From contig CAIIXF020000001.1 in NCBI GenBank assembly GCA_903813345.2, positions 19,654,001 through 19,718,000 on the forward strand: 64,000 nt of DNA, given 5' to 3'. Shown piece by piece: positions 11,886-38,394 of this stretch (position 1 is the stretch's first letter; each line of letters opens with the position of its first letter). The notes beneath the pieces were generated by a model. The model was given only the letters and a program-made list of their open reading frames with translations, did not search any database and had not been told where the DNA came from. The position numbers and the translations under genes are program-made. This DNA is from Owenia fusiformis. Lineage: Eukaryota.

Positions 11886-12257
11886 TACTACTACATGTGT
11901 TTTATTTTTATAATAAGACGATTGATTGTATATCATGGTCAACTTTCATGGTAAAAAGAATATGATTGGGATCATAAGGCAGAAAAGTTGGTGTACTTGA
12001 ACATATGAGGATCATTAGATATGGCTCAATACATTTTTCCCTTTCTATCTATTAGAGACTATAAATTGTTCTAACCATTGAGGTTTGGGTTTTTGTCATT
12101 TATCACGTCAGTATTAATAGATAGAGAGTTACTCTATAAGTGGTTATTTCCGTTTAATGATCTCATGTGGAACATGGTGAATATCTTGTCTAGAATACTG
12201 TCTGCTTTGTTGTTACTCCTTATTTTTCATGATTATGGGATCAGGTCATGTTTTCTT

Positions 12258-12775
12258 TAAGCAAGCCTTATTTGTCCCAAGATGGTTTCAAGCAAGCCTT
12301 ACTTCTTCTTGGATGGTTCCAAGCAAGCCTTATTTGTCTTAGGATGGTTTCAAGCAAGCCTTACTTCTTCCTGGATGGTTCCAAGCAAGCCTTACTTGTT
12401 CCTGAAATGTTTCAAGCAATCCTCATTTGTCTCAGGATGGTTTCAAGCAAGCCTTACTTGTTCCTGGATGGTTTCAAGCAAGCCTTACTTGTTCCTGGAT
12501 TGTTTCAAGCAAGCCTCATTTGTCCTAGGATGGTTTCAAGCAAGCCTTACTTGTTCCTGGATGGTTTCAAGCAAGCCTTACTTGTTCCTGGATGGTTTCA
12601 AGCAAGCCTTATTTGTCCCAGGATAGTTTCAAGCATTTGTCCCAGGATAGTTTCAAGCAAGCCTCATCTGTCCCAGGATGGTTTCAAGCAAGCCTCATTT
12701 GTCCCAGTATGGTTTCAAGCTAGCCTCATTTGTCCAAGGATGGTTTGAAGCAAGCTCATTTGTCCAAGGATTGTT
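12258..12775. repeat. 31-bp minisatellite, ~16-17 copies
   Basis: Unit ~GGATGGTTTCAAGCAAGCCTTACTTGTTCCT; the period of 31 is seen at 12311/12342/12373. Confidence 0.92.
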
Positions 12776-15700: not shown

Positions 15701-18365
15701 AAAGACGCAAAACAATATTTATGACACTAAAATAAAGTACATAACCCAGCCTTTATTGCTCGGATGTACTAAAAAGCAGTCATAAGTGCGTCATTCAGGA
15801 GTGACATTCAGTGCACAATAGGGATGGTTCTTAGCTATTTCACGTCATAAATCTTTATCACCTTATATCGATTTTTTGGGGTATAATCTTAGAAAAGTGA
15901 CATAAATCCTTGCTATTAACAGCATTAAATCAAACTTGATTTATCCTTTCTACTTATTTGTGGCAATTTTACAGACAGGGACACGAGGGCAAGTGTATTT
16001 ATATTTTTCATGCAATGTGTCACAAGCACAACCAGCAATACATCAATTCCCCTTTAATAGCTGATCAATCCAAAGTGAAATCATGAATTGTCTCATGAAT
16101 TGTCACATGGAATTGTCTCTCAAGAGTATATACCAATTGAAGCTCAGGTAAAGTGTATTTAAAGGTATAACATAACTTTCATTGATTTGAAATAACCAAA
16201 ATATGATTGATGCTATTCTCAGCTAGGAGTTGGTTTCTTTGCCTGTTAACTCCTGACCTAGTATCATTACCCACTATCACCCACTTCCAAATAGATATTT
16301 TTTGTTTTATAGTCACTTGCCAATCATTCTAAAGATTTCCATGATAATGTCGACTAAAAACATCCAGAAAATTGAAAACTAAAAAGTTATTAGGAAAATA
16401 AAACGGCTTGACTTGTTCCATCACAGCTACTACAGTAATTCAGATTGCTTGCATGATAATGTCGCCTAAAATAATTCTAAAATTGACTTCACAGGATGCT
16501 TTATTGTAATTAACTTAGAGATTGAATTTTTTAGAATCTACGGTGTTAGATAATTAATTTAATTATGTTCATTCATTAGTTATTGATGGAGCAACAGCGG
16601 GAAGACTGAAAATTTCTGGAAATCATGCAACAGACTTCATATTATTAATAGTAACACGATCATATTCTCTCTGAAGTTTATTCTTGTATGTCTTAAATAA
16701 GAATCATTAAGTTGTTATTATGCCAGCGTTAGGGTGTTATATCATGATATAAACTAATATCGACTTACATTTTTATCGTAATAATGTATGGTATCTAGGA
16801 AGCATGATACTGAAATTGTTTTCCAGAATGTCAAAATCAATATTGGCAATAAAACTGACTTTCAAAAGAGGTTAATTATTGATAAAATAGAATATTATGG
16901 GAACTTATTGATCACCTCTTGTATGATATACATAATGTACAGTATGATATGAGCTTAAAATCATTTTAGATATTTTAAGATTTTATATGTAGATGTAGTA
17001 GAATAAATGTTTTTACTCTCTTTTCAAGTCTAATAGTTAACATATTCTCCATGGTATTGGAATCATTGTGGAACTAACTTGAACTGTCTTTGGGAGAAAG
17101 CGCATGAGCATCAGTTAATAGCGACTCAGATAAATCAGAGAGCATGAGACTTTTATCCACTATTATAGCATTGGATATTTTTTATTTTTTGTGCAGTAAA
17201 CCATTGTTATAATCTGCATGTTTAACATCAGTATTATCTTGGATGAAATGACTAATCTGTTAATCCCAATTATAATCTCTCGTAACACATTCTTTGGTAG
17301 CCCCATATATAAATCATGTGTTTTACTGGAATGTGCTTATCATGACATGCAGGTGTTGTATATTGACTATTTATAATCGTATCCCTTATGATTTATTCAC
17401 AAATGAAATATATGACTATAAATAAAATATGATATTCGTCATTAGGGAAATGTTGATATAAGCGATGAGAAAGGATTAGAAATTAAAGCCTGTTGGGGGC
17501 TGGGAATATTTATTCAATTGTGTTATTAATTGAGGAATGGAATATGATTTTTGTAGAAGCTTTTTGCTGTCATATTATAGTCCTGATAAAATACTGTACT
17601 ATATTCATATCGTACAATGATGATAGACATGCTGCACAATGATGATAAACATGCTGCACAATAATGACAACAAAGATACTTCAGATGATGAGAATAGATG
17701 AAATATTTTATACCAAATAACTCTCTGACTGATTTATACTTTCTCCAATAGCATTTGTAATTACATCTTAATTCACATTTCTTTGATTAAGGGAGTAATT
17801 CTTTAATATCAGTACTAATTGTTTATCAGAACTCGTATCGCTTCTGGCAAAAGTATTCCTTACTAAATTAATGATTTCATTTATCTCATTAGGCTGATGT
17901 CTTAAGCAATCCAGAGTTCAAATCGAACTCTTAGAGGGGATTGTTTAAGAAATGATAGTTATAAATCTCTGTATCATATTTTATAACAGATATGTGTAAA
18001 ATCTTCATTTTTCTATTTTGACATTATGTATAAGTGATGAAATTTACAATATGGCTTTATAATTTTTGTGGTTTTCAAAATCTAAATAAATGACTTGTCT
18101 CCACCTATCTTAGAAAAACTTTATATGGTATATATCGATACATTGTTTATATACAAGAAGAAAGTGTAGCATACAATCTATAGATTCACAAATAGTTGAA
18201 GTAGTTGAGATACAGTCAAACCTGTCTAAGTGGAACACCTTTGGTACCTTTAAAAAGTGTTCTACTTGGGAGGTGTTCAACTGTATTTCCAAAAGTTGGT
18301 TCATAAGCTGATGTTTTAGCATCAATCTACATACCCTGGCTTAATGAGAGAATTCTCTGATTTAA

Positions 18366-18918: not shown

Positions 18919-20356
18919 TTAAAGGCAATTTGTATGAAATTCACAGTCCAGGGAATCTTAATTCTCACGCTGATTTTCATTTTTACTATGAGCAATTTAA
19001 CAATTGCTACATATGTATTCCTAGTATTTCTTTCATGGATTATTCAATCCACATAATTCACTTGTTTGATTGACGTTTTATTGCATTACACTGTATTAAA
19101 GGATATGACCAAAATTTCAATTGTCTCAATCTACTACTTTTACTCTACAAAGGAAATTAATGTTACATTGCGTTATTCGCATCTTTGCCATCAGGGTACG
19201 GAATTATGTAAATCACTATGGAGTACTCTCTCAGGATTAACAGATCTATGGTATTTTTACTGTTTTTCCTGATGACATTTCTACTTGGGAATGCTGTTTT
19301 CAGTTTTAATCATGCTAATATGGGCACTGGGAATTGATTTATCTTTATCATTCTGAATTGTGATTTAGAAACTTAAGAGCTTTGATAAGAGGGAGAATAA
19401 ACTATAATTTATGTTATTGTACTGTCTTTATTGATGAGGTTTCCTGAATGGATATCAGCATTTTGTAGTCTTGGATCAAGCCCATCTTGTCTTACTATTC
19501 CCTGTTTTACATAACTGGCTTGGGAAATCAGGGAGAATATGGACATAGGTTTGATTTAAGACTATTTGTTGTATAATACCATGAAGAAGTTTGGAAATTC
19601 AATAGTGGTTGGTGTTTGACATTCTGCATCTGTAACAAGTGAGATTTTGCATGTCAGTGCCTTGTATTCTATTGGTCTTGCCTTATGTTTTGTATAAATT
19701 ATTGTTATTTTTCATTATGTATCAATATTTATTTGTTAATTTGACATTATAATATAATACAAATAGCTTCCTCTTCCCAATCATAACTTTACTTACGGTA
19801 AGCTGCTAAACCACAAGTGTTATTTGCAGAGGCACTTTTTAAGTAAAGGACATCATTATTTTGTAATATTAGAAGTTAATCATAATTTTCATCAGTGATT
19901 AAAAGTTATTAGATATTTGATATTTTGACCATATCCTATTCAGTACACTCCATATTCCTATTTGTGATAAAGGATGACATTTTATTCCAATTTTTATGAC
20001 TAAATTGAAATGTACTATAAGTCATGATTTACCTCGGAAAAGGAAAAGTGAGTCTCCTTGGGATTAGGATAATCCGAAAAACAATGAAAATTTGATGTCA
20101 AATATCTGGCCCAAAAGCAACTTTTTTGATATGGTTAATGTACAAAAAGATTGGGGGATATTATATAATTGATCTCCAAAAAGAAAAAAATAACAAAATA
20201 TGAAGGATCATAAATAAGGATTATCTCATAATCTATATTTGCCATAATGTATATAAATATATAAATTACATAATGCAAAATTAATGCATTAATCATGTAC
20301 ATGTAATGTTACATATACTTCCAAAATATGATAAGTTGCATTCTATATGATTCCAG

Positions 20357-21451
20357 GTTCTGGAGGCAACTTTCTATCTCCACAGGACCCTGGGGTATCA
20401 TCAGAGGAGTACTGGTCTTGGCTTCACAATCGGGGCACACAGGCAGTACCCAGCAAATTTGAGCAGACCTCCCAAGCCTCCCAGGTTAACCCACAGAAAG
20501 CCTTGACAAGGAAACACAGTGCCGATTCATTAACCATGTATCAGACATATCAAATGCCCGATTTCACAGATTTACCACTTAGCCATGACCAGCGGTTATC
20601 CGCTTTGATGCAAAGTATGGTCCAAACTCAACGCAATCTTACTCACTCGCTTACCTCATCCAATATCAAACCAAGGCCTGGCACGGAGCATGAATCACGA
20701 ACATTACCAAGGCCGAGTTCTAAAAATCGGGACCTCCACTTATCCCGTAAACCATTGCAGTTGAAACCGGATGACTTTTACTTGTATCGACCCGAGGGTC
20801 ATGGTCACCCCGGGAGTAATATGAATGGGGTAATATCGGTGCATATATATTGTGGCCATGGCCTTAAATCCTCTAAAACTGTGCTCAGGGACCTTTACTG
20901 TGTGGTACAAGTAGATTCAATAAACAGAGCCCGAACAATGATCCGTACAGGTGCTATCAACTTTGATTGGGATGAGGGGTTCGATGTTGAGTTAGAGAAT
21001 GCAAGTGATATGTGTTTTCTTATATACAATTGGGATCCCAATAGGAGACATCGACTATGTTTCTCTGGCAATGTGAATCTCCCGAACATGCTTCAAAAGT
21101 CCTACAAACAAAAAGTGGCTGTGAGACTTGAGCCAAAAGGGATTATTTATCTGAATGTTGTATATAAGGAAGCGGCTGTGAGTTTACAGCGTACACCATC
21201 TATGAAAAAGAATGCCATCTTTGGTGTGGATTTAGAAACAATCGTGAAACGTGAAAAATTAGGAACCAATGTGCCAATACTTGTGATGCAATGTATAGAT
21301 GAGATTGAACACAGAGGCCTGGATGTGGTGGGCCTCTACAGGCTGTGCGGTTCTGCTAAGAGGAAGGTTGAACTACGAGAAGAGTTTGAACGAGATATCA
21401 GAAAAGTTGAACTCTCTCCAAATAGTGTACCCGACATTAATGTAGTGACAG
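20357..21451 (+). CDS. SYDE: SYD-1/SYDE/RhoGAP100F-like Rho GTPase-activating protein, internal exon encoding a disordered region, the C2 domain and the N-terminal part of the RhoGAP domain
   Basis: Lies in ORF 20347-21483. Acceptor ttccag|G at 20356/7 and donor G|gtaag at 21451/2, both phase 1. C2-like segment (GVISVHIYCGHGLK...LYCVVQVD...ARTMIRTG...FDWDEGF) is followed by IFGVDLETIVKRE...VPILVMQCIDEIEHRGLDVVGLYRLCGS...ELREEFER...PDINVVTG, which matches the SYDE/RhoGAP100F GAP domain as I recall it. Confidence 0.92.
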
Positions 21452-23549
21452 GTAAGAGAAATATTGGTGTAACAATGTATTAACAGTGTGACTTCATAAA
21501 ATGTCATGTGAGTCAAAGTGTGACAGTATTATACTGTCAGTGTCAGGTTAGTCTAATGTGACATTGGTATGGTGTCGGATGATTCTAAGTGTAACAGTTT
21601 ATCAATATGACATCATGAAAATACCAGTGTGGCATCATTAGGTGAGTGCTAGGTGAGACAAAGTGTGACACCAGTAAAATGTCAAGTGAGCACAAACACG
21701 ACACTGTTATAGTGTCATGTTAGGTAAAGTTAACACCAGTATAATGTTTGGCGAGTCCACAGTGTCCAGTATGGTAAAGTGTGGTACCCGTTTGAGATCA
21801 TCAAGTATCAGGTGAGTCAAGGTATGACACCAGTATAGCATCGGGTACAGCAAGTTTGATATCAGCATTATAGAACAACATGTTATTAATATGATATACA
21901 TTACAAATGAGGACATGCTCAAACCTTATAAATAAATAAAAGTATCAGGCTCATAACAGGAAACCACCTACTCACTGATTGCCATTAATGTATCTGTACA
22001 TTATTATTTGTTTAAATAATAGTTGTTATCTCACATGTTTCATGTCTTTTGGTTATGTGAAAAATGGAGTAGAATATCCTTGGACTTGGAAGGACAAGAA
22101 AATCAATATATTGGGCATTACTCTTCCGCCATTGTTTTAGACTCTTGCATTAAAATCTTACAATGATGCAAGTGGAGTGTTCTACCTCTTGTGCTTTAAT
22201 TGTAAGATGTTCTTATTGTATCACACAGCTTAATCTAAATGAAAATGAAGAAAAACTTACAACTTCTGTAAGCGACAGCTACGTTGTTGCAAATGGTGAC
22301 AATACAATTGTTTCAACCCTTACAGAATATTCACTTTTGCTATATATTTTATAAGGACAGAGAGAGTATATTACATTGGCAAAATCAATTAAGTCTGAAG
22401 TATATCTCATTCTAACCACAAATTGAAATGTCTTGAACAACTGAAAGTTCAGCGAACTTGCATGAAAGTCTTCCCAAGGAGGTTCCTATACATCTGTCTA
22501 GGAAGCGACTAATGTATCATAATTAAATAGAGTTTTGTGTCGGAACTTAATTGTTACCATGAGCTCAGTATTGATCCTTCATTTCAGGAATCTATATAAA
22601 GCAAGGCAATAAGTCATGGTTCACTGGAGAGTGATTAAAAACTAATTGGATATATGGACACTGTACATGTACTAAAAATGTTCAAACCATTTTAGCCATG
22701 ATAAATGGTGCCGCAAATTATGAGAACACAAGATGGTCCTTCAAAATTACTGTCATTTTCAACCTACTTAATGTTTGATGATGTGTGAAGTTCCTTCCTT
22801 TTGAGGTATTTTGTGATATATTTATCAATTTACTTACTTACTTACTTACATATTTGTGTGTTAAAGATCTTATTTTCTGGGGAGGTGCAAAATATCAATG
22901 ATGCAAAATTCAAAATGAAATTCACAAATTTTCACTAATCCATTGAATATGGCTTACGATGAGATACAAAGATGAATCCGGTGGTTTATGGATTTTTGCT
23001 ACTTGACTCAAAACAAGACTGACAGTAAGGCCAATTGAAATGTTTGAATTGAATAATTTAAGCACCTTTTAACTATAGGATAAAAAGAATATCCCATGAT
23101 TTACTCATAACATGAATTTTGTCGAGGCTCATAGATATTGATATCAGCACTCTGTTGTTTCTCTCGCTCCTATATATCACATACCCATACATAGGTAAAA
23201 TCATATTACACTGTTAATGAGGTTGGCTTATAAGCACCAAATCATTATGTCACAACATTTGCAAAAATAGCCCTCTATATCCCATATCCAATTGTGAATG
23301 ATTTACATTTGTATTTGATTATACCATGTGCTAATATGATATCCTTAATAAGTACCTAGGGGATGCAATATAGCATACTGTTTTCTCGGAGTAACTAATC
23401 TATCATACTCTATTGTTATTCCTTAATGGAATTAGCATATTGGATATTTATGGTAGTTCCCCTGGGTGCGAGAGGTAGTACTGTTAATCTGTGTACATAC
23501 ATTGTACTGTGTGAGGAAAGCTGCGTGTACCTTAACATTACCAAGTATA

Positions 23550-24220
23550 TTATTATCCCACCAAACAAAGTTTTTAGGGATATAGAAAAGTCGGCTGTCC
23601 ATCCGTCTGTAAGTGTATTAGGCGATAACTCAAATACCAGTTGATAGATTTGGTTCAAAGTTTATTTGCTTATGCCTTATTGGTGTAGGGCCTCTGATGG
23701 AGAAGGAATTTTCAATATGGCCACTCATTTCAAAATGGCCACAATTTTTCACAAAAAGTTTTATCTTTGATAAGACAAATACCAGTTGATGAATGTGGTT
23801 CAAATTTTAAATGCTGCTGCCTTAGGGACATAGAAGCTGTGATCAAGAAGAAACTTTCAAAGTGCTCTCTGAATTTCAAAATGGCAGTTTTTCATAAAAG
23901 ATATACCATTCATTTTATAGGCTAATATCTTATTGGTACCTCTGCTCAAGGAGGCATTTTCAAAATTGCTGCTCATTTCAAAATGGCCACCATTTTTTTA
24001 ATTTTCTAATAACTTTATACCAGTTCCAGGATTTGGTGCAAATTTCATAGGCTAGCATTGTAAAGGCAAAAGACTTAATTCTGCTCAAGAAGGACTTACT
24101 ACTCTACTACATGTATTACCTAGTTCTTCACGTGATGAACTAAGTAATGTCCAAAATGATGAAGTATTTAAAATATTTTTTGTTTGCTGGGATTTGCTAC
24201 TCTGTGGAGTTGCTGTTTTA
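23550..24220 (+). mobile_element. Degenerate Helentron-associated (HINE/DINE-1-like) element
   Basis: Subterminal inverted repeats ATCCCACCAAAC (23555) and GTTTGCTGGGAT (24182), a short GTCC/GTCT tract and internal repeats with TTTCAAAATGGCC. Similar to 51305-52862. Confidence 0.6.
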
Positions 24221-24582
24221 TAGTTTCCCTATTTTCTAATATATTAAAAGCACCCTTGTGAATTCCATATTGCTTTTTAGGTATGATTTATCTTTTACAG
24301 ATAATTACCCATTCTTGAAGTTTGTAACCTCTCAGCCGCAAGTAGCTCTATGCTCATGAAGAGGAACATGTTTCTCAAGCCTATGTATTTGGGCATAAAA
24401 TTATCATTAAAACTGATTTTGTTATTCTTAAGGCATATAATATACATCCCTGAACATGGAGAGACATCCTGCATCACTGATCCAGTCATCCTTATCATAT
24501 ATGGGTCCAAAAAAGGTATCACAAAATAAAGTTAAAATCATACTCCTGCCTCACATTAAAACACTTCTCATCTGTATTTTAG

Positions 24583-24743
24583 GCATTCTGAAAGACTTTT
24601 TACGTGAACTCCCCGAGCCGATCTTTACCAACTCCCTCTATCAGATGCTCTTGGATGCATTGTCTGTTCGGTTACCTAGCGACCCTGGTGGCAGTGCCAA
24701 ACTCATGCTCAGCATACTTGAATGTTTACCCAAAGCCAACCAA
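24583..24743 (+). CDS. SYDE: SYDE-like RhoGAP, next exon (GAP domain core)
   Basis: Acceptor tattttag| and donor CAA|gtaagt; phase 1 in, phase 0 out. Encodes (G)ILKDFLRELPEPIFTNSLY...LECLPKANQ, containing the canonical LKxFLRELPEP RhoGAP motif. Confidence 0.93.
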
Positions 24744-25550
24744 GTAAGTATATTTTTAACCCCTGTCCACTGCAGGATGGCAATAACTGGAATTAGTGTC
24801 ATCCAAAATGGCGGACAGAATTCTTCAATATAGATAAACCTTTGATTTCAAATAAACCAAGTAAAATCTGGATTCCAACACAGCCTGCGCTATCCCTTGC
24901 AACAGACACAGACTTTAAATTAAGAGAGACTGATGAATCAGAATGGGATTCAAAAGCTTAAAGGTTTATAAAAATCCAATGTACACCATCTTGGCTGATA
25001 CTAACTTCATCAACAAACTCAATATTGTTAACAGCAGGAGATGAATATCACAATATTAGTTTTCGAAGAAATGTAAATGACATTATCAGTGGCTGTTATA
25101 AATATTTGCTTAATTGATAGATATAGAATAATATAATTGTCACCCAGGCTTTTACTTCATTAGTGTACTATTACTGAAAATAGCGCATTTCAGATTGATG
25201 GCTTTCTATCAGTTACCTGTCTCTCAAATATACACACAGGAATAAACATCAATACCTTCATATGAGGTATTGCATCAAACCCTTGTGTACGTTTAACAAA
25301 AATTTACACTTTTTAATTGTTAGATTTTTGTTTCTTAAAAGAGAGCTTCATCAATACTCTTTGAATAAGAGAGAATCTTTTGGTCTACTCTGACCCATTT
25401 AGATATATAGCTACTTTTGATGGTGACATATTGTTATAGTGTTTTTAATGATGATTCCCTGAGATTGAATAAATGAAATATGCAAGTGAAAAAATGTGTA
25501 TTATTGACTTTTGTATAAGCTGCAAACCATCCAATGGAACTTTCAGATTT

Positions 25551-25721
25551 TTATGTTACCTCCAATGACAAGTGGTGACATATTGTTATGTGTCTTTTTT
25601 GTGGACAGTGTTCAGTGGTTAGTGTTTGGCAGTTTGGTGTTTGGTGTTCAGTGGTTGGTGTTTGGTTTTCGGTGTCTGTAACAAATGGCAGGTGGTGACA
25701 TTTCGCATAGTTATGCTTTGT
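25551..25721 (+). mobile_element. Representative of a ~110-170-bp mini-HINE-like family (others at ~19600-19665, 34753-34905, 39470-39577, 50114-50255, 50679-50825)
   Basis: Shared layout: 5' TTATGTCACCACC-like end, GTGACATATTGTT, a GT-rich variable middle, TCTGTAACAAATGGCAGGTGGTGACAT, then a GCATxxxxATGC hairpin and CTTGT. Confidence 0.65.
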
Positions 25722-27339
25722 TTTACAGTTAAATTGATCTTTAAGATTAATCTTATTAGTTTCTCTCTATATTATACACTATCAAGTGCTAAATGATAGC
25801 AAACTGAAATTGTTTTGTACAATAAAATCATTGACGTCATCAATAATGAAAGCCCTAAAGGTGATGTTTCCATTTCTATCTGACACACTACACCTCCTTC
25901 TAATACCTACGGAAGGAAGTGCTATTTCAATAACATATTGAAAATCACTCTTGAAGGGGATTCACCATTCTATAGTTTACTGTGTGTATTACTAGCTAGA
26001 TCGGATTCCTGTTAATGCCACATCCGCGGAACAGTAAAGCAATCGAAGTAATTTCAAGTTAATAGAGAAAAACATGTTTAGTTAGGAGCAGTTCTGTTTT
26101 GGTTAATGCGGTTATAAACCAGAGTTACGATGCAGTTAGCGCAATGACATAACTGATGATTGTCATTGCTGTTAGTTTCTTATAAGATATTACTCTCTTG
26201 TGCATCCTTATCTCAGAGTTAGGCTTTTACAGTGTACTTTAGGATCTCACAGACCTATACATCATTTCCACTTAGAGCTATCTAGTTCCATTTTCATGTT
26301 AATTTATATAGACCAGGCCTGTAGCGCACTTTGCGTGGTGATTGGACAGAGATACAAGTGTCCCAATAATCTTTTAAACGAAAATATGAAATAATTGAGT
26401 TTTTACTAAATTGATGTTTGAAATCTGAATTAATGACTTGGATTTATATTTATTAATTGTCTCTGCTCATTTGTCCAGTTAGATAATGTGACTGTAAAAA
26501 CCATTGTGACATCTAGAAGGTGACTAATTTATATTGCAAACCTTCTTTGTAATATAAAATCTAGTTTTTTTTAATTTCTTATCAAATTGTACATTTTTTA
26601 AAATAAAAATGTAAAACTTATCTAGCTACAAGTCCTTGTGAGCCCCCCTCCCCCGACCAACAAAAAGTGTTGTGTTGGGATCGAAGTAGGCTAATGCAAA
26701 ACATGATGAGAAAGCACAAACCCAAAAATGGCCCAGTTCTTTTTAAGATCGAGTATATGTTGTTAGTAATATCCAAAATATTAGACCATTGAAAAGGCTT
26801 TTTTCATTTAAAACGCGGACTAGATAAAATACATACACATGTACTAGTATGGAAAAAAGAATGCAAAAATAGAAAATTGAATATTTTCCTCTTGTAAGAA
26901 TCATGTTTCATTTTTCCTCAAGTGATTCAGAGCAAAACTGTTGCACAAAAACACCTCAGGGAAAATTGATGTTAGCGAGGTCAAAGACTAAGTAGAAAAA
27001 ACATTTATGACCAATGAAGCAGGGCTTGTGATAAGTGAATTCTGTTCAATGCTTGCTGATATTAACTTCTAGCACAATGCAACTGGAAAACTCCTATTCA
27101 CGATAAGAGTTCAGGTGGTAATTTACATAAATATCTATCATGATGCATCGCTTTGGAAAGGACAAATTTTCATTGGCCCTCCGAACGAGTCGATTACTCT
27201 GAACGTTTTTCAGCTTCTGATCTTCCATCAGCCCTCAAGCATAGTTATGATCCAATCTATTCAATAATCAGAAAGATAATCAGAGATTCAAAGTAACATT
27301 ATTTATATTTTTTCGATCTTCGATGGCGTCTGAGAGGAA

Positions 27340-27653
27340 TGGTGAGCACAGATGCTCCTGGGATAGCTCCAATAGAAAAAGTCACAAAAATTCAAGTCAG
27401 GAGAACTTCTTTTGGAACTTAGCCCTTGCACTGATTTTTGCAATATGTGAAACTTGGTCCAGAGTGCCGATTTTGACCCACTTTGCAAATAGAAGGATTT
27501 CTCACCCAACCATGACCACATTTGAATGAATGACATATCATTGCAAAGAGGATGGATGTGTCTTTAAGGTACATTGAATGAAATTGATGTAGTGATCACT
27601 AGTTTTGTGATTTTACGAGATAACCACTTGTTGCGTTTTTTTGATACGCCTTG
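27340..27653 (-). mobile_element. Tc1/mariner transposon remnant with a transposase fragment
   Basis: The minus-strand peptide RSSPDLNFCDFFYWSY (27361-27410) resembles the SPDLNPxDFFxWGYLK motif. A TIR-like end TA|CAAGGCGTATCAAAAAAA lies on the minus strand at 27653. Confidence 0.65.
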
Positions 27654-27655
27654 TA

Positions 27656-27825
27656 CAGTAAAACCTGTCTAATCCGAATGCCTCTGGGACTGGCCAAAAG
27701 AGTTTGGATTAGAAGGTGTTCACATTTCAAGGCTATATGAACATGTAAGTCAATTGGAGATAACAAAATTTGGACTGAGAATATGAGTTCATATTGAGAG
27801 TTGTTAGTTCATACAGGTTTCACTG
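27656..27825. mobile_element. Pogo-like MITE
   Basis: TA|CAGTAAAACCTGT ... ACAGGTTTCACTG|TA. Confidence 0.7.
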
Positions 27826-30183
27826 TAATTACTTATTATTAGACACTACTGTTACAAGGTATGGTCAGCATATTATTCAATGATTGAAAGAGGACACCAT
27901 CTGATTCTCTGGAACAGTTAATTCATAGCTCATATTCATACTCTCATTCTATTAACTCATTTCCCCTCAGATTCTGTGTAATAATGGCATGATTATGTGG
28001 ACATCCACATTCCCCAATCACTATTGACCAGCATTGCCTTACATGGTCGACTGTTAAAATCATTTAACACTCCTTGATCAATCAGAATCAAGTATTTCAC
28101 CTAAAGTACTAATAATCTACTTCGGGATGATAATTCTTACATCAATGCCTTCTCTATGTACTATGATTGACCGATCAATCTGATACTCATCACATTTTTC
28201 TGTATTCAAACTATCAATATGTAAGGAACCTATAGGGCTATGATCTTTCACAATGGTGGCTGATAGGATTCATTGATATCTCCCTATGAGGGATGATTGG
28301 TAGTAAAACACTATCAGGCATCGTTGATTTGTTTTCTGATTTCTATCTAACTTTCACTATTCAGTCAATCAAAATGTCGAGAAGTGACTTTTATAGCTGA
28401 ATTGATTACTCCAACTGTAATGACCTATCAGTTGATTGTAGTGACCCATAGACTGATTGTAGTGACCTATGGATTAATTGTATTGACCTATTTATATACA
28501 GTATATGGTTTGATTGTAGTGACCTATGGATTAATTGTATTGACCTAATTAAGAATTACATACTGTGTTACATGATGTATTGTGAGGGCGCCATCTTTAA
28601 GAGAAGATTGCTAATTTTGCTTAAGATGTCTCCTAAAATTCAACCACTGTGTTTAATCATATATATCCATGCTCTATGAGACTCCTGCTAGACACATCAC
28701 TAGACACACAGTGTGAATGTGTTTACATTTGACACATACACCGAGAGGACAGACATCTTTTTACATGTATTTTGGCTTATAGGTATACATTGTACTAAAG
28801 AGTAAAGGAACATGAGCCAGAGACACATACACATGTGCACTGTAGATAAATGTCTTATTCTTGACACATGCATGGTATATATGCATGTGTATATTTTCAT
28901 AGATAATATCACTATATAAACACTCACATCGTAGACACTAACATGGTGAACATATTAACCTTTACTTCCATCTCTAGAAAGAATACAGTATGACCTAACT
29001 GCAGTTAAAAAAGCACTCCGGGGTTCTACAGTCTGTTAATATAGGGGTTAGGCATCTGAAGAGGTTGTTGGTGTCAGTATAGGTTGTAGACCTTGTAGGT
29101 GTCAGTATATGTTGTATGTGTCTTGAGACACTCCTCAGGTGTCATTTCGTAGCAGTGCAACGCTGCACAAAGTTATTATTCAGTATTAGCCAGATCAGTC
29201 CACAAAGATAATGAAATTGAGCTTTCAATTTAGTTGAGATGTCATTATTTTGTGCCCAGGGATTTAACCCTATCTAATATAGTCACTAAGTATAGTTGAA
29301 ATAAGATTAAAATCCGCGGAAGTTCGGTGCCATCTAAATAAGGTCTAGCTTCATAATGATCCCAACCTGACATTGCCCAAATATGGATCTCATTGGGATA
29401 ATCAGTGACAAGTTCATCTTTAAGATGAGATGTATTGCTTCACACATGTGTAAGAATTGTAGGGTGACGTAAACTCATTACATTAGGACAGGCGCCTGCC
29501 ATGTCTCTTCCAATGCCTGACACATCTCTTCCAACAGGTTTAATTGTAGCTGTTATTTCCCCTGTGTCTCTCCAAATAGTATTCATGTATTTAGTGCTGA
29601 TTTTGTTAAATACAAGTATTTACACAATGTGAAAAATAGGCTGTAGATTTTCTAACTTTAGTTAACACCTCTTCAATAATTTTATTGTTAATGATTTTTC
29701 GATTCAAGGGAGAGGATATGCGAAGATATAACGTATAGAGGTTCATTACGTCTGACAGATACGCTTTATGTAAAGAAAGTTACATCAACCTTAAGGCTAA
29801 CTAAGTTCACGGATCTTCATTAGGCAGAAGCGATTACTTCATCCTGTGTCATTTTAATCAATATGTCATCCTGTATTTAACATTATTCTCATATCATGGG
29901 TTCGTGCTACATAATCTGTGCATATTGTTCAAGTCAAAATACCCCCCCCCCCATATTTTAGAGTTGCTTTAATAAGTACTGTATGTAGATTGAGATGTAT
30001 AAAGTTCATTGCTTCTTAAATTGGAATGCCTGAAAATTCTCTCAAAAAATTGTATAATAAGCTGCCAGAAAAATTTCAATTTTGGAAAATCAAAATGTGC
30101 ATTATGGTATTGCTCTCCCAGTTCCAAACCATATATGGTGGCAGGGCAGTAAGTAAATATATGTTTATTTTGTGTGATTTTAG

Positions 30184-30394
30184 GAAACCTTAGCCTTCCT
30201 CCTTGATCATCTAAAGAAGGTTGCTAACAGGGCAGAGGCCAACAAGATGACGACACACAACCTAGCTGTGTGCTTTGGACCAGTTCTGCTTTGTCCTGCT
30301 TTGGAGAACAAATCTGAGATCGAGGTTGGGCTCGAGTTTAAGAAACACATCGAAGTGCTGAAGTATCTACTGGAAATCTGGCCTGAACAACGAG
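30184..30394 (+). CDS. SYDE: SYDE-like RhoGAP, exon encoding the end of the GAP domain
   Basis: Acceptor gattttag| (phase 0) and donor G|gtatta (phase 1). Encodes [36 protein letters not shown]...[12 protein letters not shown], containing the [14 protein letters not shown] motif. Confidence 0.93.
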
Positions 30395-30818
30395 GTATTA
30401 TAATAAAACAGAATTATCTAAAATGCACATAATAACATAGATTTGCAGGTCATGATATTTTATTTTGAAGTACAAAGTTTATTTTGGTTTAGTTTTAAAA
30501 AATAAACTAATGGAGCCCTTAAACTATAAATACTTTGACATTGAATTGAATTTGAAATTTCACAAACTAAAACAAAATAACTTTGTAAGATTATTTCTAC
30601 AACATTTTCCCCATAGTATGCATATTAAACTTATTATTTCATGCATTATATATATATATACAATATTAAAGTAGTTTGGTGTATCAGTGTCATAAATCCA
30701 TTTTTCAGTTTGTGGTGACTTATTTGAACCTGTTATCAATTTTATATTGTTCATTCGATTAAGACCATAAGACAGAATAGCATATGAATGAGAGTCATGG
30801 CTATATTGCGTTAGAGTA

Positions 30819-31093
30819 GTTGATTGATTTTTCACAAGTAATTGATTGATTTTTGACAAAGAGTTGATTGATTTTTCACAAAGAGTTTATTGATTTTTCA
30901 CAAAGAGTTGACTGAGTATTCACAAAGAGTTGATCAATCTTTCACAAAGAGTTGATTGATTGTTCACAGAGTTGATTGATTTTTCACATAGTCGATTGAT
31001 TTTTCACAAAAAGTTGATTGATTTTTCACATAGTCGATTGATTTTTCACAAAAAGTTGATTGATTTTTCACATAGTCTATTGATTTTTCACAA
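30819..31093. repeat. 20/22-bp minisatellite, 13 copies
   Basis: Unit GTTGATTGATTTTTCACAAAGA; the last units alternate 20 and 22 bp. Confidence 0.92.
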
Positions 31094-31151
31094 TTAATGA
31101 ACTCATAATTCATAATTACATACAATTAGTAGTTCCTTCCACTCTCACTGT

Positions 31152-31653
31152 TTATTTCTGTTTAATTTTCATAACCACTTTTTTCAGAGAGTAAAAGTTT
31201 GTGTCTCGTATATTTCTCCACACCACTCCATCTCCCCAAAAGCTGTTTGTTGAGTAGGGCCCTCCGTAATAGTACCTGCCATTGAGGTTACTATTATAGC
31301 AGTTGTTATACCACCAGGCCCCATGGCCCCATTCAACACACAACCCATCATTGAGGTCATTGCGTCTGTCCCTAGTGCTGAATTCCATTTCATTATGATA
31401 ACTCAATGCATCACCAGCGTTACCATGGTACCCACTCGCGTGTAACTTGTAGTTTTCATCCTCTGATCCTATTTTGAATGAGTCATACTCTGCATATCTC
31501 ATGTTGTCTTCCCAGTCGTACAACTCAATTTTCAGTTTACTGTCGTACACATTGGTGAGGATGTGAATATGCTTATTCCCAAGATAATGGTCTGCAAGTA
31601 GATCGCCAAATCCATTTTTGTAGTCTTCCCAGTTCCGATAGAAATCAACATTC
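31152..31653 (-). CDS. Angiopoietin-like / fibrinogen-related protein, exon 3 (rest of the fibrinogen C-terminal domain)
   Basis: Acceptor attgcag| (phase 2). Encodes NVDFYRNWEDYKNGFG...YLGNKHIH...FSTRDRRND...C...GAWWYNNCYNSNLNG...YSLKKVVMKIKQK*. The spliced CDS is 1210+145+502 = 1857 nt, giving 618 aa. Confidence 0.95.
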
Positions 31654-31929
31654 CTGCAATGTTCAATCATATTAGGGCAATGTTTGGCTAAAAGCGATGC
31701 TTGTTATCTGGCAATAAGAAAGACAATGGACTCTAACCTGAAATACATTTAATCAGTCACATGTAGAAGGGGTCTTTGCATTGTGGGATCCACAGTCTCT
31801 GCTATCCAATACATGCTTTATATAAAGAGAGACTGATAAATTAGAATGGGATGTTTGCCATTGTTTGCTCATTGCTATGAATAGTTATGAATCAGTATAA
31901 TAAAAACAAGAAAGTTTAATTTGGCTTAC

Positions 31930-32074
31930 CCATCTTGCCTCCTCTGTATGACTACCCAACCGTCAGAGCCCTCCATGTCACAGTATGCTGGGAAGGGAGC
32001 TCTTGTGTCTGGGCGCAATGAATAAATACCACTAATAGATTCGTAATACTGGAGGGCATCTTGACAGTTAATAT
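31930..32074 (-). CDS. Angiopoietin-like / fibrinogen-related protein, exon 2 (start of the fibrinogen C-terminal domain)
   Basis: Not in the ORF track; read manually. Acceptor tttcag| and donor GG|gtaag. Translates (Y)INCQDALQYYESISGIYSLRPDTRAPFPAYCDMEGSDGWVVIQRRQD(G), the classic FReD start C...SGIY...YCDM...GWxVIQRR. Confidence 0.93.
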
Positions 32075-32385
32075 CTGAAAATGATAACACACAATAATGA
32101 TAACATAGTACTAATCAATAGTAATCATGAGTGACAGAGTTTAAGTTTCACTGGAAACTGCAACCTTTAATTGTGGAACAATCTTCTCTATTGTGGTGAA
32201 ATCTTCTTGAATTTTCATTTGTATAGAGTTATATTGTAACAATGACTTTGACATTGAGAATGCAGTGAATACCAAGCGTGAGAAGATGTCTAGAATTACC
32301 CTTGCACCTAATCATAGTGCTCAAGTATATCCTACTTTGCCTTCATCATTGGACTTTAATGTTGTAACAGAATAAGAATACTCAC

Positions 32386-33595
32386 ATGTTGGCTGTCTGA
32401 TCAATGGTTGACCAATGTTGGCCAGAATACCTCTGATTGCATCCAAGTCTCGTTTCATTTGAACCAACTCATTATCTTTGGCATTCAACTTTCTCTCTAG
32501 CATTAAAACATGTTCACTTTTTGCACTTTGATCTTTCGCTGATGCGACTTCCCCCATCAGCCTGTGTTCAAGATTATCCATCCTTGCAGTTTGCTGTTCA
32601 TCTCTCGTGTCATCTTCATGTTTTTGCTGGATTAATTGTTCAATAAGATCCTGTTGTTTTTCATTGGTATCTTCAACATTCATTAATCTTTCTTTTAACT
32701 GTTCCCCCTCTGCCTGTATAATTGTTTCTATTTGGTTAGTACGTTGCTGTAATGATTTAATCAACTTACGGTTATCTTGAGTGAGGCTGCCTTGGTTGTT
32801 CAGTTTCTCTTGTAGTCCATTTATTTGTCTCTTGAACTCAAGGAGATCAGATAAAGTCTGATATGTCTGGTTTCTTAATTCTTCCCTGTCAGCCCATCCA
32901 GACATAACTTGTGTATTTAACATGTTTATCTTGTCTTTGTTATCATTTTCATTCTGTTCAATGATGGCATTAAAGTTTTCTTGAATGGTTGTCATGTCTC
33001 TCTGGAAGGTGTCATCAACAGCCTTGACAGATTCATACATCTTTTCAATCTTATTTTCAAAATCGAGTTCTAGGTTTTTAATTTCAACTGAAAGTGCTTG
33101 GGCTGTTTCACGCATCTCTTTTTTCAGACTATGTATACTTGTTTGGTTCTTGGCTTCAAAGATAAGATTAGCTAGCTGTGTCTGTAGTTTGACGAGAGAC
33201 CGTATGTCATTACCTTTTCCCATTACGTCATTATTTGATGATTTGTTCAGTAGAATCTCAATGTTTTGTGATTGTTTCTCAATAATCCTCCGTAGTTGGT
33301 TCGTATGGGCCTGCTTTTTGTTTCCCATATATTCACCTCTCCAACCATCCGGAAAAGTCTCGTATTTCAGACAGTCATCATTCTCTACCTTTTCCCTGAA
33401 AAGTTTATAGTAACATTTTGTCTCATCATCATGTAGAGTTGGTGTCAATGGTGTTGTCTCCCCATTGAATAATACAGCTTCTGGTGGATCACTTGTATTC
33501 ATGTCTTCATCAAATAGAACTGGCTTAGGGTCATCTACTGGTCCCGCATTAGCAAAAACTATGCAACACACAAATAAAGTTATTGCATATATCAT
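32386..33595 (-). CDS. Secreted angiopoietin-like / fibrinogen-related protein, exon 1 (signal peptide + long coiled coil)
   Basis: ATG at 33595 starts the hydrophobic signal peptide MIYAITLFVCCIVFANA, followed by a long Q/E/K/L-rich heptad-like region. Donor ACA T|gtgagt at 32386/5 (phase 1). Confidence 0.88.
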
Positions 33596-35532
33596 TGTGC
33601 TAGTTAAACCTTCTACCTTCTCTGCCTACACATTTAATGTGGTACAATCACAGTTGTATACTAGCCAATAATGGAACTGTAAAAAATATGTGAAACTTAG
33701 AATCTCAAGGATTGCAACACTTTTAAATCTGATAGCTACTCCAAAGAAGATAATTAATATAGGACTTAAGTGCTTGAAATGAATGAAAATATAGTGGTTG
33801 ATACGCAACAGTACTTGACTTAAAGGTACAACCAGTGATAGAGAGGAACTTTTTTAAAACATATATTTTTATTTTTGGTACTGTTTGTTTCTTTATAATG
33901 CTTCAATCAGATTCTTTCCAGATTATAATGTAATACATTATATCCTCAGTGCACAATAATAGTTATACTTTTTAGTTAAGGCCACATTTATTTTCAGCTT
34001 AATTACTAGCACTTTAGTAGACCCCTTAATGCTACATTTAAGTTCAGTCTTGCATTTACATTGCAAATATTTTGATTTTCACCTTTATGATATGAAAGGT
34101 GGAACACACAGCACTAATCTATGGTGGGCAGACTATCTAGTTGTATATCATATTTTAAATTTATGTCTTTAGGGTAAAAATAAATGTTTTAAAGAACTAG
34201 GTAGTAGGTCACAGTGACCTACTGATATTTTATTTTCTCAGATTATTAGACTTTACTTTTTAGTCTTTAACATCTTTAATTTCCACAATGCAGGAAATAA
34301 ACCCCAAAATACTCAAATTCAACACGATGCCCCGTTGACTAAAACTATAGCAGTCTGCACATGTACGTCTTGTCTCTATTGGCAACTGTTGAAACTTCAC
34401 GGGGCAGATGTACCTGATAATATAGGACTTAATACGATTCATATTGATTAGGTTTGCATCTATGCAATGTTCATGGATACTGTGCTATATGAGGTGGGGG
34501 GGGGGGGGTTAGGTGGGGGATTGTTAAATGATGACTTGTTTACAGAAGTCATTTCAGCATATTATCCATGAATGTAATCTTCATTTGCTGTAGTGCTTTT
34601 TCACTTTGTATGTTTAATTTATTGTTTATTTGCTTTGGCCACATATGATACCATTGTCCCTTGAATGTGAAGCCTTTAAATAAGGTGGTTCCCTGGTTTC
34701 CCTCCCTCTCCTGACTGACCAGCTGACTCAAATCTCATGCATAGGTCCATGTATTATCTCACCACCACAAATGTTGACATATTGTTGTAGTCTCAAACTT
34801 TTTGTGGACAGTGTTGTGTTCAGCGTTTGGTGTTCAACATTTGCATTCCATAGTCAGCGTCTGTAACGAATCGCATTTGGTGACATTTTGCATATTAATG
34901 CCTTGCTATTTCAATATACCTTATAAATCTGAAATGTATGTGATCACTAATGAAACCAAACCCTAAACCCATTGGATACACCGTTTTTGCATTTTTATTA
35001 TTTTGTTGTTGGCTTGTTATATATGTATATTCAGTTATAAATTGAAAAGGTTATCCCTCATATAAATTCAACATACTAAACTTCATCTTACATGTCTTAT
35101 ACAGTATTGTAATATTTTTTTTATATATGTTTGTACAAAAGGTAATTATGTTATAAAACTGTTTAATATATTTGATGTACAGTTTAAACCTTAATAAATG
35201 TATATGTTGTCAAATCTCATTTTCTCTCCTTTAATTTTGTGTAAATGATGTACATGTATGTTACCTTTCAAAAATTTCCACATTTTTTTTCAAATAAGTT
35301 AAAATTGTTTGACCAAGTGGTTGAATATAAATGTGCTTAGAATCATCATCATAATCCCGTACTAATAAATAGATACTAATAAATGTATATTATCATTTTG
35401 CCAAATTTTGTGTGCGTAGTTTTGAAACATCAATTAACTAGGCCTACGTACATGTTTATCATGTAAAAATAATTGGTTCAGCCTTAGTGTAAGTCTGAAG
35501 AGAGAATGAATTTTGTATTTGGTTGATTCCAG

Positions 35533-35801
35533 AATTGAAGAGCAACCCAGCAACTTCACCGCAGAGATCCATTATGAGAGCGACGTTACAGGAAGTCGCC
35601 ACAGGCTCTCCCCAGAGGTCAACAATCAGGGCAGCAAATATATCACAATCCCCAAAAACCTCCCCTCAGAAGTCTTCATTTCGGGTGGCTCCTGAGGGTA
35701 GCCATGAGTCACCCAATAGAAGATCTAGGTCAAGGTCATCAGAGAGAAAACCAAAGGGAGAGGTGACGTGGTTAGATTCTGAGGAGGTCTCTACATGTTA
35801 G
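35533..35801 (+). CDS. SYDE: SYDE-like RhoGAP, probable terminal exon (Ser/Pro/Arg-rich tail)
   Basis: Acceptor ttccag| with phase 1 matching the previous donor. Open frame (E)LKSNPATSPQRS...RSRSRSS...EEVSTC ends at TAG 35799-35801. GC-richer than the flanks. Confidence 0.75.
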
Positions 35802-36293
35802 GGACATTGAAAAGTGAGCCGAAATAACAGGAAAATACCAAAGATGACTTTCTTTCTACATTATTATACATGTCAATATATCTAGAGATCATTATGTTAT
35901 ATATTGAATATAAAACAGCTTAGATCACATATTGCATTACAAGAAGTGAGGGTAGTTTTAGTGCAACACCCTCTATGACAACCTTAGTGAGAATAAGTTT
36001 TTAATCTAATCAGTGAATACCAAGATAATAAGTGTGAAACACAAAGGCCAATTTGAAGGCAGGGAATTCCTCTGAATGAGGTAACATCATATCAATGTGT
36101 ATAGGAAGGAAACATGACAGCCGACATCTGAATAATCTTGAGTAGTATGTTTGGAAACCTTTAACATACCCTCATGATAAAAGAATGTGCAATGTCCATA
36201 CAGAAACCGTGAATACATGTATGTCCTAAGGGTAATGCTATTAGACTTGATCTACAATATCTAGACTTATTGTGTACCAGAGTTTCTTTAGAT

Positions 36294-36404
36294 CAGGGTG
36301 TTTATTTGAAAGAGAATTTTAGAAAAAATTGGTCTCTGAAAAGGCCCATTGGCATTCTTTTTTAAATTGCTCCTGAAACGGGCCTATCCAAAATAAACAC
36401 CCTG
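36294..36404. mobile_element. 111-bp MITE-like element
   Basis: 14-bp perfect inverted repeat CAGGGTGTTTATTT ... AAATAAACACCCTG; no clear TSD. Confidence 0.55.
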
Positions 36405-38394
36405 CTAGCCAAATATCGTAAAACTCTGGCATTTAGATCAGTGCAGTACATAACGCTTTCTTACATACCTATTATTATGAAATGAAACAATTAGAGGAAC
36501 TTGAAATAGATTGAGAAGAAGAATTACTCACCTGGAATTGATGAGAGCTACTTTTACAGGAAAGGTTTCAAATGTGAACAATCATCTTTTCTGTGACCAA
36601 TCCTTCGACTCCCATGTTAACAAGCCTCCAAATGTGACCAGGGCTTTAGTATGTGATGCATTACTACCAGAATATTATTTATAACAGATCTCGGATTTAT
36701 TTTGTATTAGATGGTACAGCATCTCTTATATTGAAGCTTGAAAAAGATTTGTTTTGAAAGAAAATTAATCGCCTTTTTAAATGAAAATTTTGTAGCTGCT
36801 TACAAGGTGAGGAATTTTTTCAAGCTTTGATATTTTCCAAAAAGAAGGTTAGTGCCCAAGTCTATTAATTGTGTAAGTAACATATCATTATGAATTAAAA
36901 ATATTTTAGTGTTCTCAAGGATGAGAATTGCAGTTATTGGCCATTTCATGAGGTGCCTTCATGATGTTAACATAAAATTACATGCATAATAAAAAATTTT
37001 AATTCCCAAGATTGTCCATCTTTTGAAGTTCACCAAACTGTTATTGTATTAAATTGTCATTTATTTATTCGTTATATTTTCTAGTCTTAATTTATTTACA
37101 TTATTATCATGTGAAAAATACATAAAGAATTATAAAATTCAATTGAATGATCTGTATTGGGTACTGAAACAATTTACTTAATTTAACATTTCATATCAGA
37201 CCATGATACATTACACGAAAAGAGACCCTGGCCAAGCATATATTTTATGAATCATTAGGTTTCTAAAATTCAGCCTTTTTAGTTGTAGATCAGTTGGAAG
37301 TTATTAAAATTGAAATTAAAAGAAGAAAAATGGAAGTTTATTTATTTTTAGAATACTACCTCGTATTGGATATTCACCATGAGTGCTGTACTTTGTATAT
37401 TTTAGTGCATGATGTATGTAAGATCTCGCATTTGTTATGATATGTATGTATCTAAAATCATGAGACATAAGCTATGTTTGAAGATATTATCCATTGAGTA
37501 GAGCTGTTTAGTGATTAAAATCTGTAGGAAGGGGACAATAGCTGTGTGTAATAGGTTCAGTTTTATAAGTCAAATTATAGCCTGCAAGACCTACCTTAGT
37601 AAGTATCCTCTTTTGAAATATGGAAAGTGCAAATATTGAAGAGGTTGCATTTGGAATACGTCTCTCCCACTTTCAGCAGGTGCATAATGTAACAAACATC
37701 CATTTGAGTCCATTGGGAGTCATTTCATCTCATTCCAGTTATAATGCAAGATCTATATATTTATTTTGGAGAGTTCTGTAAACACATTGTATTATATTGT
37801 TATTTTACAACTTACAGTCTATTATGTTATTTATCAAATCATTCCAGGATATATTTATTTGACCACTTTTAAGTAGGTCACATGACACATGCAAATGACA
37901 CATTAATTATATTTACAAACTGATTTGTTTTAGAATCGTGTATTTTTGATGAGTTGTTGGAATATACTTTACTGTTTGATTTTTAAAGTATAATTATGTT
38001 ACAAATGTACCAAGTATTGACTGAAAGAGTCTCTTATATTATATTATGTTTGTTTTATATTTTGTGTTATTATTACTGTCCAACTGACTGTGCAATAAGG
38101 TAATCATGAGTACACATATAAATATAGATGGCATATGTGTAGACTGGTTCCACTCCATCGATTAAAATCAATTTATTATATAAATAACAATATTTGATAG
38201 ATATAGAACAAATATTAATACACTCTTGAAATGGGCTTCATAAGTGAACATTTTGAAATACTCAAACATACATGTACAGTAGGTGTATTTGTTGCCAGCA
38301 GTATAATCACAAACATGACAGTGTGGAAGCATGTGTATGGGATAATTTAACATTTCTGGGCTGAAACTTTTTGAGATCTGGTATATGTATATGC

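Follow-up and report, generated by a model that had tools for sequence, protein, structure and literature searches.

The window analysed here, 64,000 nucleotides (nt) of contig CAIIXF020000001.1 from the annelid Owenia fusiformis (forward strand, positions 19,654,001 to 19,718,000), contains a gene within a gene. On the minus strand, a complete three-exon gene for a protein of 618 amino acids (aa) with a C-terminal fibrinogen-related domain (FReD) lies with its whole coding sequence inside the last annotated intron of a plus-strand gene for a Rho GTPase-activating protein (RhoGAP) of the SYD-1/SYDE family. The two genes probably form an ordinary host/nested pair, in which the nesting is incidental and does not reflect a conserved or functional linkage between FReD genes and genes for GTPase regulators. 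The exons of the nested gene, in window positions, are as follows.

32386..33595, minus strand: exon 1, a 403-codon frame that encodes the putative signal peptide, a stretch predicted to be disordered with Cys61 and Cys75, and the predicted helical rod (residues 93-394)
31930..32074, minus strand: exon 2, start of the FReD, entered in phase 1 and left in phase 2; positions 4-51 of 221 of the Pfam Fibrinogen_C profile, E 1.3e-08
31152..31653, minus strand: exon 3, remainder of the FReD, with the stop codon TAA at 31154-31152; Fibrinogen_C positions 54-219 of 221, E 1.6e-47

The frame opens with an ATG at 33595-33593, and an in-frame TAG stands ten codons upstream. Exon 1 ends in the donor CAACAT/GTGAGT (slashes mark borders), exon 2 is flanked by the acceptor ...TCATTTTCAG/ and the donor AGATGG/GTAAGC, and exon 3 follows the acceptor ...CATTGCAG/. 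All four splice sites are canonical, the acceptors are pyrimidine-rich, and the introns, of 311 nt between exons 1 and 2 and 276 nt between exons 2 and 3, have phases 1 and 2. The match to the Fibrinogen_C profile runs unbroken over the junction of exons 2 and 3. The predicted product is 100% identical to a public O. fusiformis model (P0001), and a tblastn search with this model on the window returns three high-scoring segment pairs, each of 100% identity, for residues 1-403, 405-452 and 453-618. The length of the frame in DNA of about 35% G+C, together with the Fibrinogen_C E-values, means that the gene is no chance feature. A retrogene origin is rejected because two introns are present. No second FReD copy is found in the 64-kb window by tblastn with P0001.

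The host gene on the plus strand is the 3' part of a second public model, P0002, which has 1134 residues and carries the UniRef name 'Rho GTPase-activating protein 100F'. Both models are located on one 62.2-Mb contig, and their accession numbers are consecutive. In P0002, Pfam identifies a PDZ domain (residues 105-182, E 4.9e-14), a C2_SYDE domain (714-825, E 1.1e-25) and a RhoGAP domain (863-1012, E 2.7e-43). This order is the SYD-1/SYDE architecture, and the host is a single-copy-looking orthologue of SYD-1/SYDE/RhoGAP100F, SYD-1 being a synapse organiser. Its exons were solved by a script that ran over all GT/AG combinations against P0002 residues 557-1134 and gave a single solution.

20357..21451, plus strand: host exon for P0002 residues about 557-922, with C2_SYDE and the start of RhoGAP
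24583..24743, plus strand: host exon for the middle of RhoGAP
30184..30394, plus strand: penultimate host exon, for the end of RhoGAP and 34 more residues
30395..35532, plus strand: last annotated host intron, 5138 nt, with the weak donor GAG/GTATTA and the acceptor ...GATTCCAG/AA
35533..35801, plus strand: last coding host exon, for a Ser/Pro/Arg-rich low-complexity tail of 89 aa, with the stop codon TAG at 35799-35801

The last junction, EIWPEQR/ELKSNP (30394->35533, phase 1), is the one used by the public P0002 model. The nested coding sequence (31152-33595) takes 2444 of the 5138 nt of the intron 30395-35532 and is wholly inside it. Residues 1-556 of P0002 have no match in the window, and the intron upstream of 20357 must therefore exceed 20 kb. 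The host 3' untranslated region (3'UTR) probably runs to an AATAAA at 36392. A first-pass annotation, made from the letters of the window alone, had already proposed a minus-strand gene antisense in the last intron of a SYD-1/SYDE gene. Its exon coordinates, exon phases and length of 618 aa are all correct to the base, according to sequence reading, tblastn and the GT/AG script; the antisense position in the last annotated intron is borne out by the exon solution taken with the tblastn coordinates, and the identity of the host by the order of PDZ, C2_SYDE and RhoGAP.

Transcription of the locus can be followed in three stranded raw-read RNA runs (X13-X15), which carry the same species label, belong to one study and were mapped on positions 19500-37500. 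Sense reads of the host (plus strand) are seen as 'first_mate_on-' and those of the nested gene (minus strand) as 'first_mate_on+'. All three RNA runs cover 35126-36327 in host sense, at a depth of 0.21-1.9, whereas this depth does not exceed 0.03 over 30919-33923. It drops beyond 36327, in keeping with the AATAAA at 36392. In nested sense, X15 alone has reads over 30318-33923 (depth 0.44-2.07), and the depth in X13 and X14 is 0. The two genes appear to be separate transcription units, read from opposite strands and expressed differently, and the 3' end of the host mRNA appears to lie beyond the nested gene; independent regulation of the two genes is weakly suggested. The strand-specific depth fits transcription of both genes, and the junction 30394->35533 stands in the RNA-seq-informed public model. 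The pipeline behind the public models drew on STAR/Portcullis junctions, Trinity/GMAP, Mikado, Augustus with hints, and PASA (PMC9977687).

Some observations weigh against this picture of two spliced units, one inside the other. Among the best 15 of 92 joints in the RNA and contig mapping, which all fall at interspersed repeats, no read spans a junction at the six splice sites of the two genes, and splicing consequently rests on the public models and on strand-specific depth. Expression is documented by a handful of reads per bin, from three runs that belong to a single study, and the annotation pipeline combines RNA-seq hints with ab initio prediction (PMC9977687). In X15, nested-sense reads also continue upstream of the ATG, with a depth of 0.22-0.5 over 33924-36327. 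In the same run, and not in X13 or X14 (depth 0), minus-sense reads of depth 0.22-0.5 lie over the last exon and the 3'UTR of the host (35126-36327). The nested transcription unit may begin beyond the last host exon; in that case, the coding sequence would be nested and the transcripts would be overlapping.

The genes would be convergent, and not nested, if SYD-1 ended at a read-through stop at 30432, with 35533-35801 either mis-joined or part of another plus-strand transcript. The low-complexity tail exon would suit this explanation, as would the failure of a word-based search of low sensitivity to find a relative for it other than P0002 itself among 46 candidates. The same can be said of the junction 30394->35533, for which there is no read among the best 15 of 92 joints, and of the host-sense depth over the tail exon and 3'UTR (1.1-1.9), which is above that of the upstream host exons (0-0.6). 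However, poly(A) libraries usually have more depth towards the 3' end. Moreover, the host frame passes exactly, in phase 1, over the junction and into an open frame of 100 codons that begins at a good acceptor. Plus-sense RNA occurs in each of the three runs and declines beyond the AATAAA at 36392. The public model was also made with RNA-seq junction hints (PMC9977687). Altogether, convergent genes seem an improbable explanation of the locus.

The 3' end of the nested gene and the surroundings of the host donor contain further features.

30402..30506, plus strand: two AATAAA (30402, 30501) just past the weak host donor, with the read-through stop at 30430-32
30459..30483, minus strand: two AATAAA (signals at 30464 and 30483), about 65-90 nt from the end of the host exon
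30817..31093, no strand assigned: 22-bp tandem repeat of 13 copies (82% matches), located just 3' of the stop codon of the nested gene

The minus-strand AATAAA pair at 30459-30483 would supply candidate poly(A) signals for the nested gene. In X15, nested-sense depth is 1.0-2.07 over 30318-31519, still 1.0 in 30318-30918, and 0 in 29717-30317. Because this depth falls to 0 below 30318 and the minus-strand AATAAA stand at 30483 and 30464, the nested gene probably has its 3' end near 30450, and the tandem repeat probably lies in its 3'UTR. Read in one frame, the repeat gives the repeated peptide KSIDYVKNQST. On the plus strand, the host donor region (30395-30510) looks like a possible composite terminal exon, and 30402..30506 is a candidate intronic polyadenylation site that would yield a tail-less SYD-1 isoform.

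Regulatory coupling of the two genes could be built on these features. Nested transcription would promote premature polyadenylation of SYD-1 past 30394, and the tailed isoform would be made if the nested gene is silent. The weakness of the donor GAG/GTATTA, the plus-strand AATAAA at 30402 and 30501 with the stop at 30430-32, and a probable nested 3' end within about 100 nt of the penultimate host exon are all in line with this idea, and premature polyadenylation that depends on a nested gene has been described for some mammalian host/nested pairs (PMC11694760). However, the short SYD-1 isoform is without read support in the three runs, and AATAAA is frequent by chance at about 35% G+C. The X15 run, in which the nested gene is expressed, still has a host-sense depth of 1.11 at 35727-36327, as compared with 1.9 and 1.33 in the other two runs, which is no obvious switch in a comparison of three RNA runs only. 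We therefore give the coupling a small chance. A slightly smaller one is left to the proposal that the nesting itself arose by host extension, in which SYD-1 would at first have stopped at the read-through stop past 30394, with the FReD gene as its convergent neighbour downstream, and would later have captured the tail exon at 35533 and thereby internalised that gene. SYD-1 would use both 3' ends to this day, and transcription of the nested gene, with its 3' end about 100 nt or less from the weak donor and the AATAAA beside it, would choose between the tail-less and the tailed isoform. The tail exon, being without a detectable relative, leaves room for such an origin, and host extension is listed among the possible origins of nested pairs (PMC11694760).

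The nested protein begins with a hydrophobic stretch (residues 1-17, Kyte-Doolittle 11-residue means of 2.4-3.0) followed by ANA/GP, which makes it a plausible signal peptide. An AlphaFold2 model from a 40-row alignment, with a mean predicted local distance difference test score (pLDDT) of 71.7, has a helix at 2-15 and pLDDT values below 50 over 18-93, a region that is modelled as disordered and holds Cys61 and Cys75. It is followed by a rod of six helices (93-119, 128-147, 153-213, 219-267, 273-344 and 353-394) with short breaks between them, and by the FReD (about 401-618), for which the means of ten-residue blocks are mostly 86-98, with one block of 53 at a loop. Rod residues 93-394 include no proline in 302 positions, and Leu, Gln, Glu, Lys or Asn account for 50% of them. 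The cysteines of the protein are at 10, 11, 61, 75, 407, 435, 557 and 570, and there are four N-x-S/T sites. Fibrinogen_C (PF00147) matches residues 405-616 over profile positions 3-219 of 221 (E 2.6e-63, 214.3 bits against a curated Pfam cut-off of 22), which places the domain in the family as a full-length FReD. The domain has both conserved disulfide pairs of the FReD (C407/C435 and C557/C570). Three of these cysteines, C435, C557 and C570, vary in none of the 40 rows of the alignment, and C407 is conserved in at least 90% of them. The secreted-type combination of a coiled coil with a FReD, proposed in the first-pass annotation, is borne out by the Pfam match and the AlphaFold2 helices. The protein is predicted to be secreted, to oligomerise via the rod and to present the FReD in several copies, and it most likely serves in recognition or matrix binding.

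At two residues the domain departs from the family consensus. The calcium motif reads D547-R-R549-N-D551, where position 549 is Asp in 35 of the 40 aligned rows, and the second Cys of the P domain is followed by Tyr571, in a column that holds His in 11 and Tyr in 9 of the 40 rows. These positions would be part of the calcium- and acetyl-binding site, as in the structures of ficolin, tachylectin-5A and FIBCD1. With R549 and Tyr571 in place of the canonical residues (D-x-D-N-D and His), a canonical acetyl-sugar lectin site appears doubtful in the nested FReD. The departures are variation within the family and leave FReD membership unaffected. The loss of the second Asp of the calcium motif is shared by P0001 and its nearest relatives, the unnamed proteins P0132 and P0167. 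The three proteins also share a short loop insertion (GPY.TN..WGDG; residues 583-592, encoded in exon 3), and would by these marks form a small distinct FReD subgroup.

The first-pass annotation had called the gene angiopoietin-like. Judged from the sequence comparisons, this term holds for the architecture only. A signal peptide, a coiled coil and a C-terminal FReD are indeed combined in the predicted protein. The same combination is common to FGL1/2, fibrinogen chains and many invertebrate fibrinogen-related proteins (FREPs), so that it is not diagnostic of ANGPT/ANGPTL. As a family assignment, the name is not supported: against the PDB, the FReD scores 184.1 bits with ficolin-2, 179.8 with ANGPTL2, 168.2 with FGL1, 161.8 with FIBCD1, 156.7 with ANGPTL6 and 153.1 with Ang-2, the tree described below groups it with neither ANGPTL row, and its N-terminus is unmatched. 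A search of 5.8 billion clustered proteins gave 788 candidates of similar length, 272 of them at E<=1e-20. Among the 120 matches listed, identities to P0001 (itself excepted) are 33-52%, and the source names are a mixture of ficolin, FIBCD1, MFAP4, techylectin, ryncolin, FGL1 and ANGPTL7-like. Such automatic names are unreliable; two near-identical FReDs of Ptychodera, for example, are called ANGPTL7-like and FIBCD1-A-like. HMMER returned 13,535 matches at E<=0.001 among 1.84 billion representatives, with a top single-domain identity of 57% to an unnamed 221-aa fragment, and the FReD of P0001 looks generic.

The tree was computed with a quick IQ-TREE run from 61 rows chosen from 299 proteins, with all four Owenia proteins, named representatives and six unnamed ones, and without most vertebrate ANGPT, ANGPTL, FGL, tenascin and fibrinogen sequences; the length filter dropped none of the 61 rows. 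It is star-like, with 16 of the 58 inner branches starred. P0001 joins only two unnamed fragments (97, starred) inside an open polytomy, which also holds Latimeria ANGPTL2b, fish ANGPTL7, an amphioxus 'ANGPTL1' and two of the three other Owenia FReD proteins. Owenia has at least three other FReD proteins (P0256, P0117 and P0147), which are encoded on other contigs, and two of them have, like P0001, a long N-terminus and one C-terminal FReD. A one-stretch HMMER alignment of P0001 with the paralogue P0256 (163-616) was not reproduced, since BLAST aligns 400-616 only and phmmer gives the N-termini -14.2 bits. No orthologue of the rod region came out of these comparisons or of the wider protein searches. 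An assignment to the ficolins was likewise rejected, as the protein has no match to the collagen family PF01391, only 9 Gly in residues 96-400, and a helical N-terminus.

The N-terminal part itself, residues 1-403, has no Pfam family at E<=0.01, matches only itself among 2900 candidates, and reaches at best 7.1 bits with the N-termini of 12 proteins that combine a coil and a FReD; similarity to ANGPT/ANGPTL N-termini (for example Pfam PF25443, ANG-1) is not seen in these residues. Its language-model neighbours are an arthropod FReD cluster, 'Angiopoietin-related protein 2' and 'Angiopoietin-like 1b', with scores of 0.76-0.77, where 0.9 is the bar for more than a lead. These scores give a weak hint of an ANGPTL1/2-like N-terminus. 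Membership of the predicted protein in the ANGPT/ANGPTL clade remains unproven.

The vertebrate genes to which the locus had been compared in the first-pass annotation are nested antisense in introns of small-GTPase regulators or other large genes, with ANGPTL7 in MTOR among them. Embedded human genes named in PMC6371847 are ANGPTL3 (in DOCK7), ANGPTL8 (in DOCK6), ANGPTL1 (in RALGPS2), ANGPTL2 (in RALGPS1) and ANGPT2 (in MCPH1), and all five are given there as antisense to their hosts. As a pattern of GTPase-regulator hosts this list is thin, and MCPH1, the host of ANGPT2, is not a GTPase regulator. The Owenia locus shares with these intronic ANGPT/ANGPTL genes that a secreted coiled-coil and FReD gene lies antisense in one intron of a larger gene for a GTPase regulator. 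It differs in that the host is a SYD-1-family RhoGAP, that the nested gene is in the last intron near the 3' end of the host, and that no evidence makes the nested protein an ANGPT/ANGPTL orthologue.

An old or recurrent linkage between FReD genes and GTPase regulators, either homologous to ANGPTL3/DOCK7, ANGPTL8/DOCK6, ANGPTL1/RALGPS2 and ANGPTL2/RALGPS1 or selected like them, would account for the shared architecture class and the shared antisense intronic position in a small-GTPase regulator. Such a linkage could also draw on the existence of antisense vertebrate pairs (PMC6371847) and on the language-model hint, which stays under the 0.9 bar. However, the host families differ, a RhoGAP on the one hand and DOCK or RalGPS exchange factors on the other hand, and a signal of ANGPTL orthology is seen neither in the PDB scores nor in the tree or the N-termini. 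DOCK6/7 and RALGPS1/2 are paralogue pairs, and the four GTPase-regulator cases therefore probably go back to two ancestral events that were duplicated. In addition, the vertebrate list includes the non-GTPase host MCPH1 (PMC6371847), and ANGPTL8 is described in PMC5237311 as a protein without FReD. The literature does not help the linkage either, as no paper tying SYDE or syd-1 to a nested FReD gene was found in a full-text search. We consider it very unlikely that the Owenia locus belongs to such a linkage.

That a FReD gene fell by chance into a long gene is the simpler explanation. With 13,535 FReD matches and a host longer than 36 kb, a FReD gene in a host intron needs no special explanation. 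Gene nesting is also common in general: in mouse and human, more than one gene in ten contains a nested gene (PMC11694760), and about 6% of Drosophila genes are intronic (PMC3786989). The Owenia pair, a coding gene inside the intron of a coding host and in opposite orientation, shows no categorical difference from host/nested pairs at large (PMC11694760). In an ordinary host/nested pair, a member of the very large, fast-evolving FReD family would have come to lie in the intron of a long gene, and we infer that the nesting had an incidental origin. The last host intron divides the end of the RhoGAP region from the low-complexity tail exon of 89 aa. The product of the nested gene would start with a signal peptide, which is followed by a disordered stretch of about 75 residues with two Cys that look free, a proline-free rod of ~300 residues and one FReD; once secreted, it would oligomerise through the rod and display several FReD heads. 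The two genes would act as separate transcription units with different expression.

With respect to the layout of the protein, the closest comparisons are invertebrate coiled-coil FREPs, FGL/fibroleukin and ANGPTL, which have the same layout. Lophotrochozoan coiled-coil FReD proteins likewise have an N-terminal coiled coil and a single C-terminal FReD and form a large, lineage-diversified family, from which the Owenia protein differs by Arg for the usual Asp at position 549 and by an unusually long rod (~300 residues). The host resembles SYD-1, SYDE and Drosophila RhoGAP100F (see PMC2828917) in having PDZ, C2_SYDE and RhoGAP in this order. In contrast to other SYD-1 genes, it has a C-terminal tail exon without detectable relatives. 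We know of no nested FReD gene in other SYD-1 genes, and none turned up in the literature search. No paper that links SYDE, syd-1 or RhoGAP100F with a nested or fibrinogen-type gene was found in full text, and the locus appears to be unremarked in print, though visible in the public annotation.

As it stands, the locus is one more gene-within-gene pair, already in the public annotation of a published genome. The present analysis adds the base-exact confirmation of both models, the restriction of the label 'angiopoietin-like' to architecture, and two details, namely the weak donor beside poly(A) signals and the possible upstream antisense transcription. A conserved or regulatory arrangement, if it were one, would make the locus a non-vertebrate case of a coiled-coil FReD gene antisense in a gene for a GTPase regulator, and a tractable place in an annelid to study how host and nested gene interact when the host is a synaptic gene.

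The remainder of the window contains few features that can be assigned. Outside the two genes, including 1-20356 and 36400-64000, another 53 stop-to-stop frames, each of 75 aa or more, have no Pfam match at E<=0.001, and Rfam finds no match across the whole window. The largest unexplained frames are at 12233-12745 (plus strand, 171 aa) and 58751-59296 (plus strand, 182 aa). The G+C content of the window is about 35%, with 0.37-0.39 at 44-48 kb.

A contig set (X1) behaves as DNA would, with contigs that extend over the borders between exons and introns (31225-31754 and 35256-36138, for example). High-copy interspersed repeats occupy parts of the host introns (23100-24300, 25500-26100, 26700-27900 and 34525-35125), where the summed X1 contig depth is 539-17,240, as compared with about 10-60 elsewhere, and the RNA depth is up to 64. 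Joints tie 25589-25695 to 34878-34880 and thereby indicate a repeat copy in the last host intron, about 1 kb upstream of the nested ATG. X1 pieces differ from the window at 9 of 961 nt in nested exon 1, at 10 of 1090 nt in a host exon, and at 12 of 530 nt in a piece of exon 3. Intron pieces differ at 4 of 602 to 22 of 928 nt, and this polymorphism gives no clear sign of constraint.

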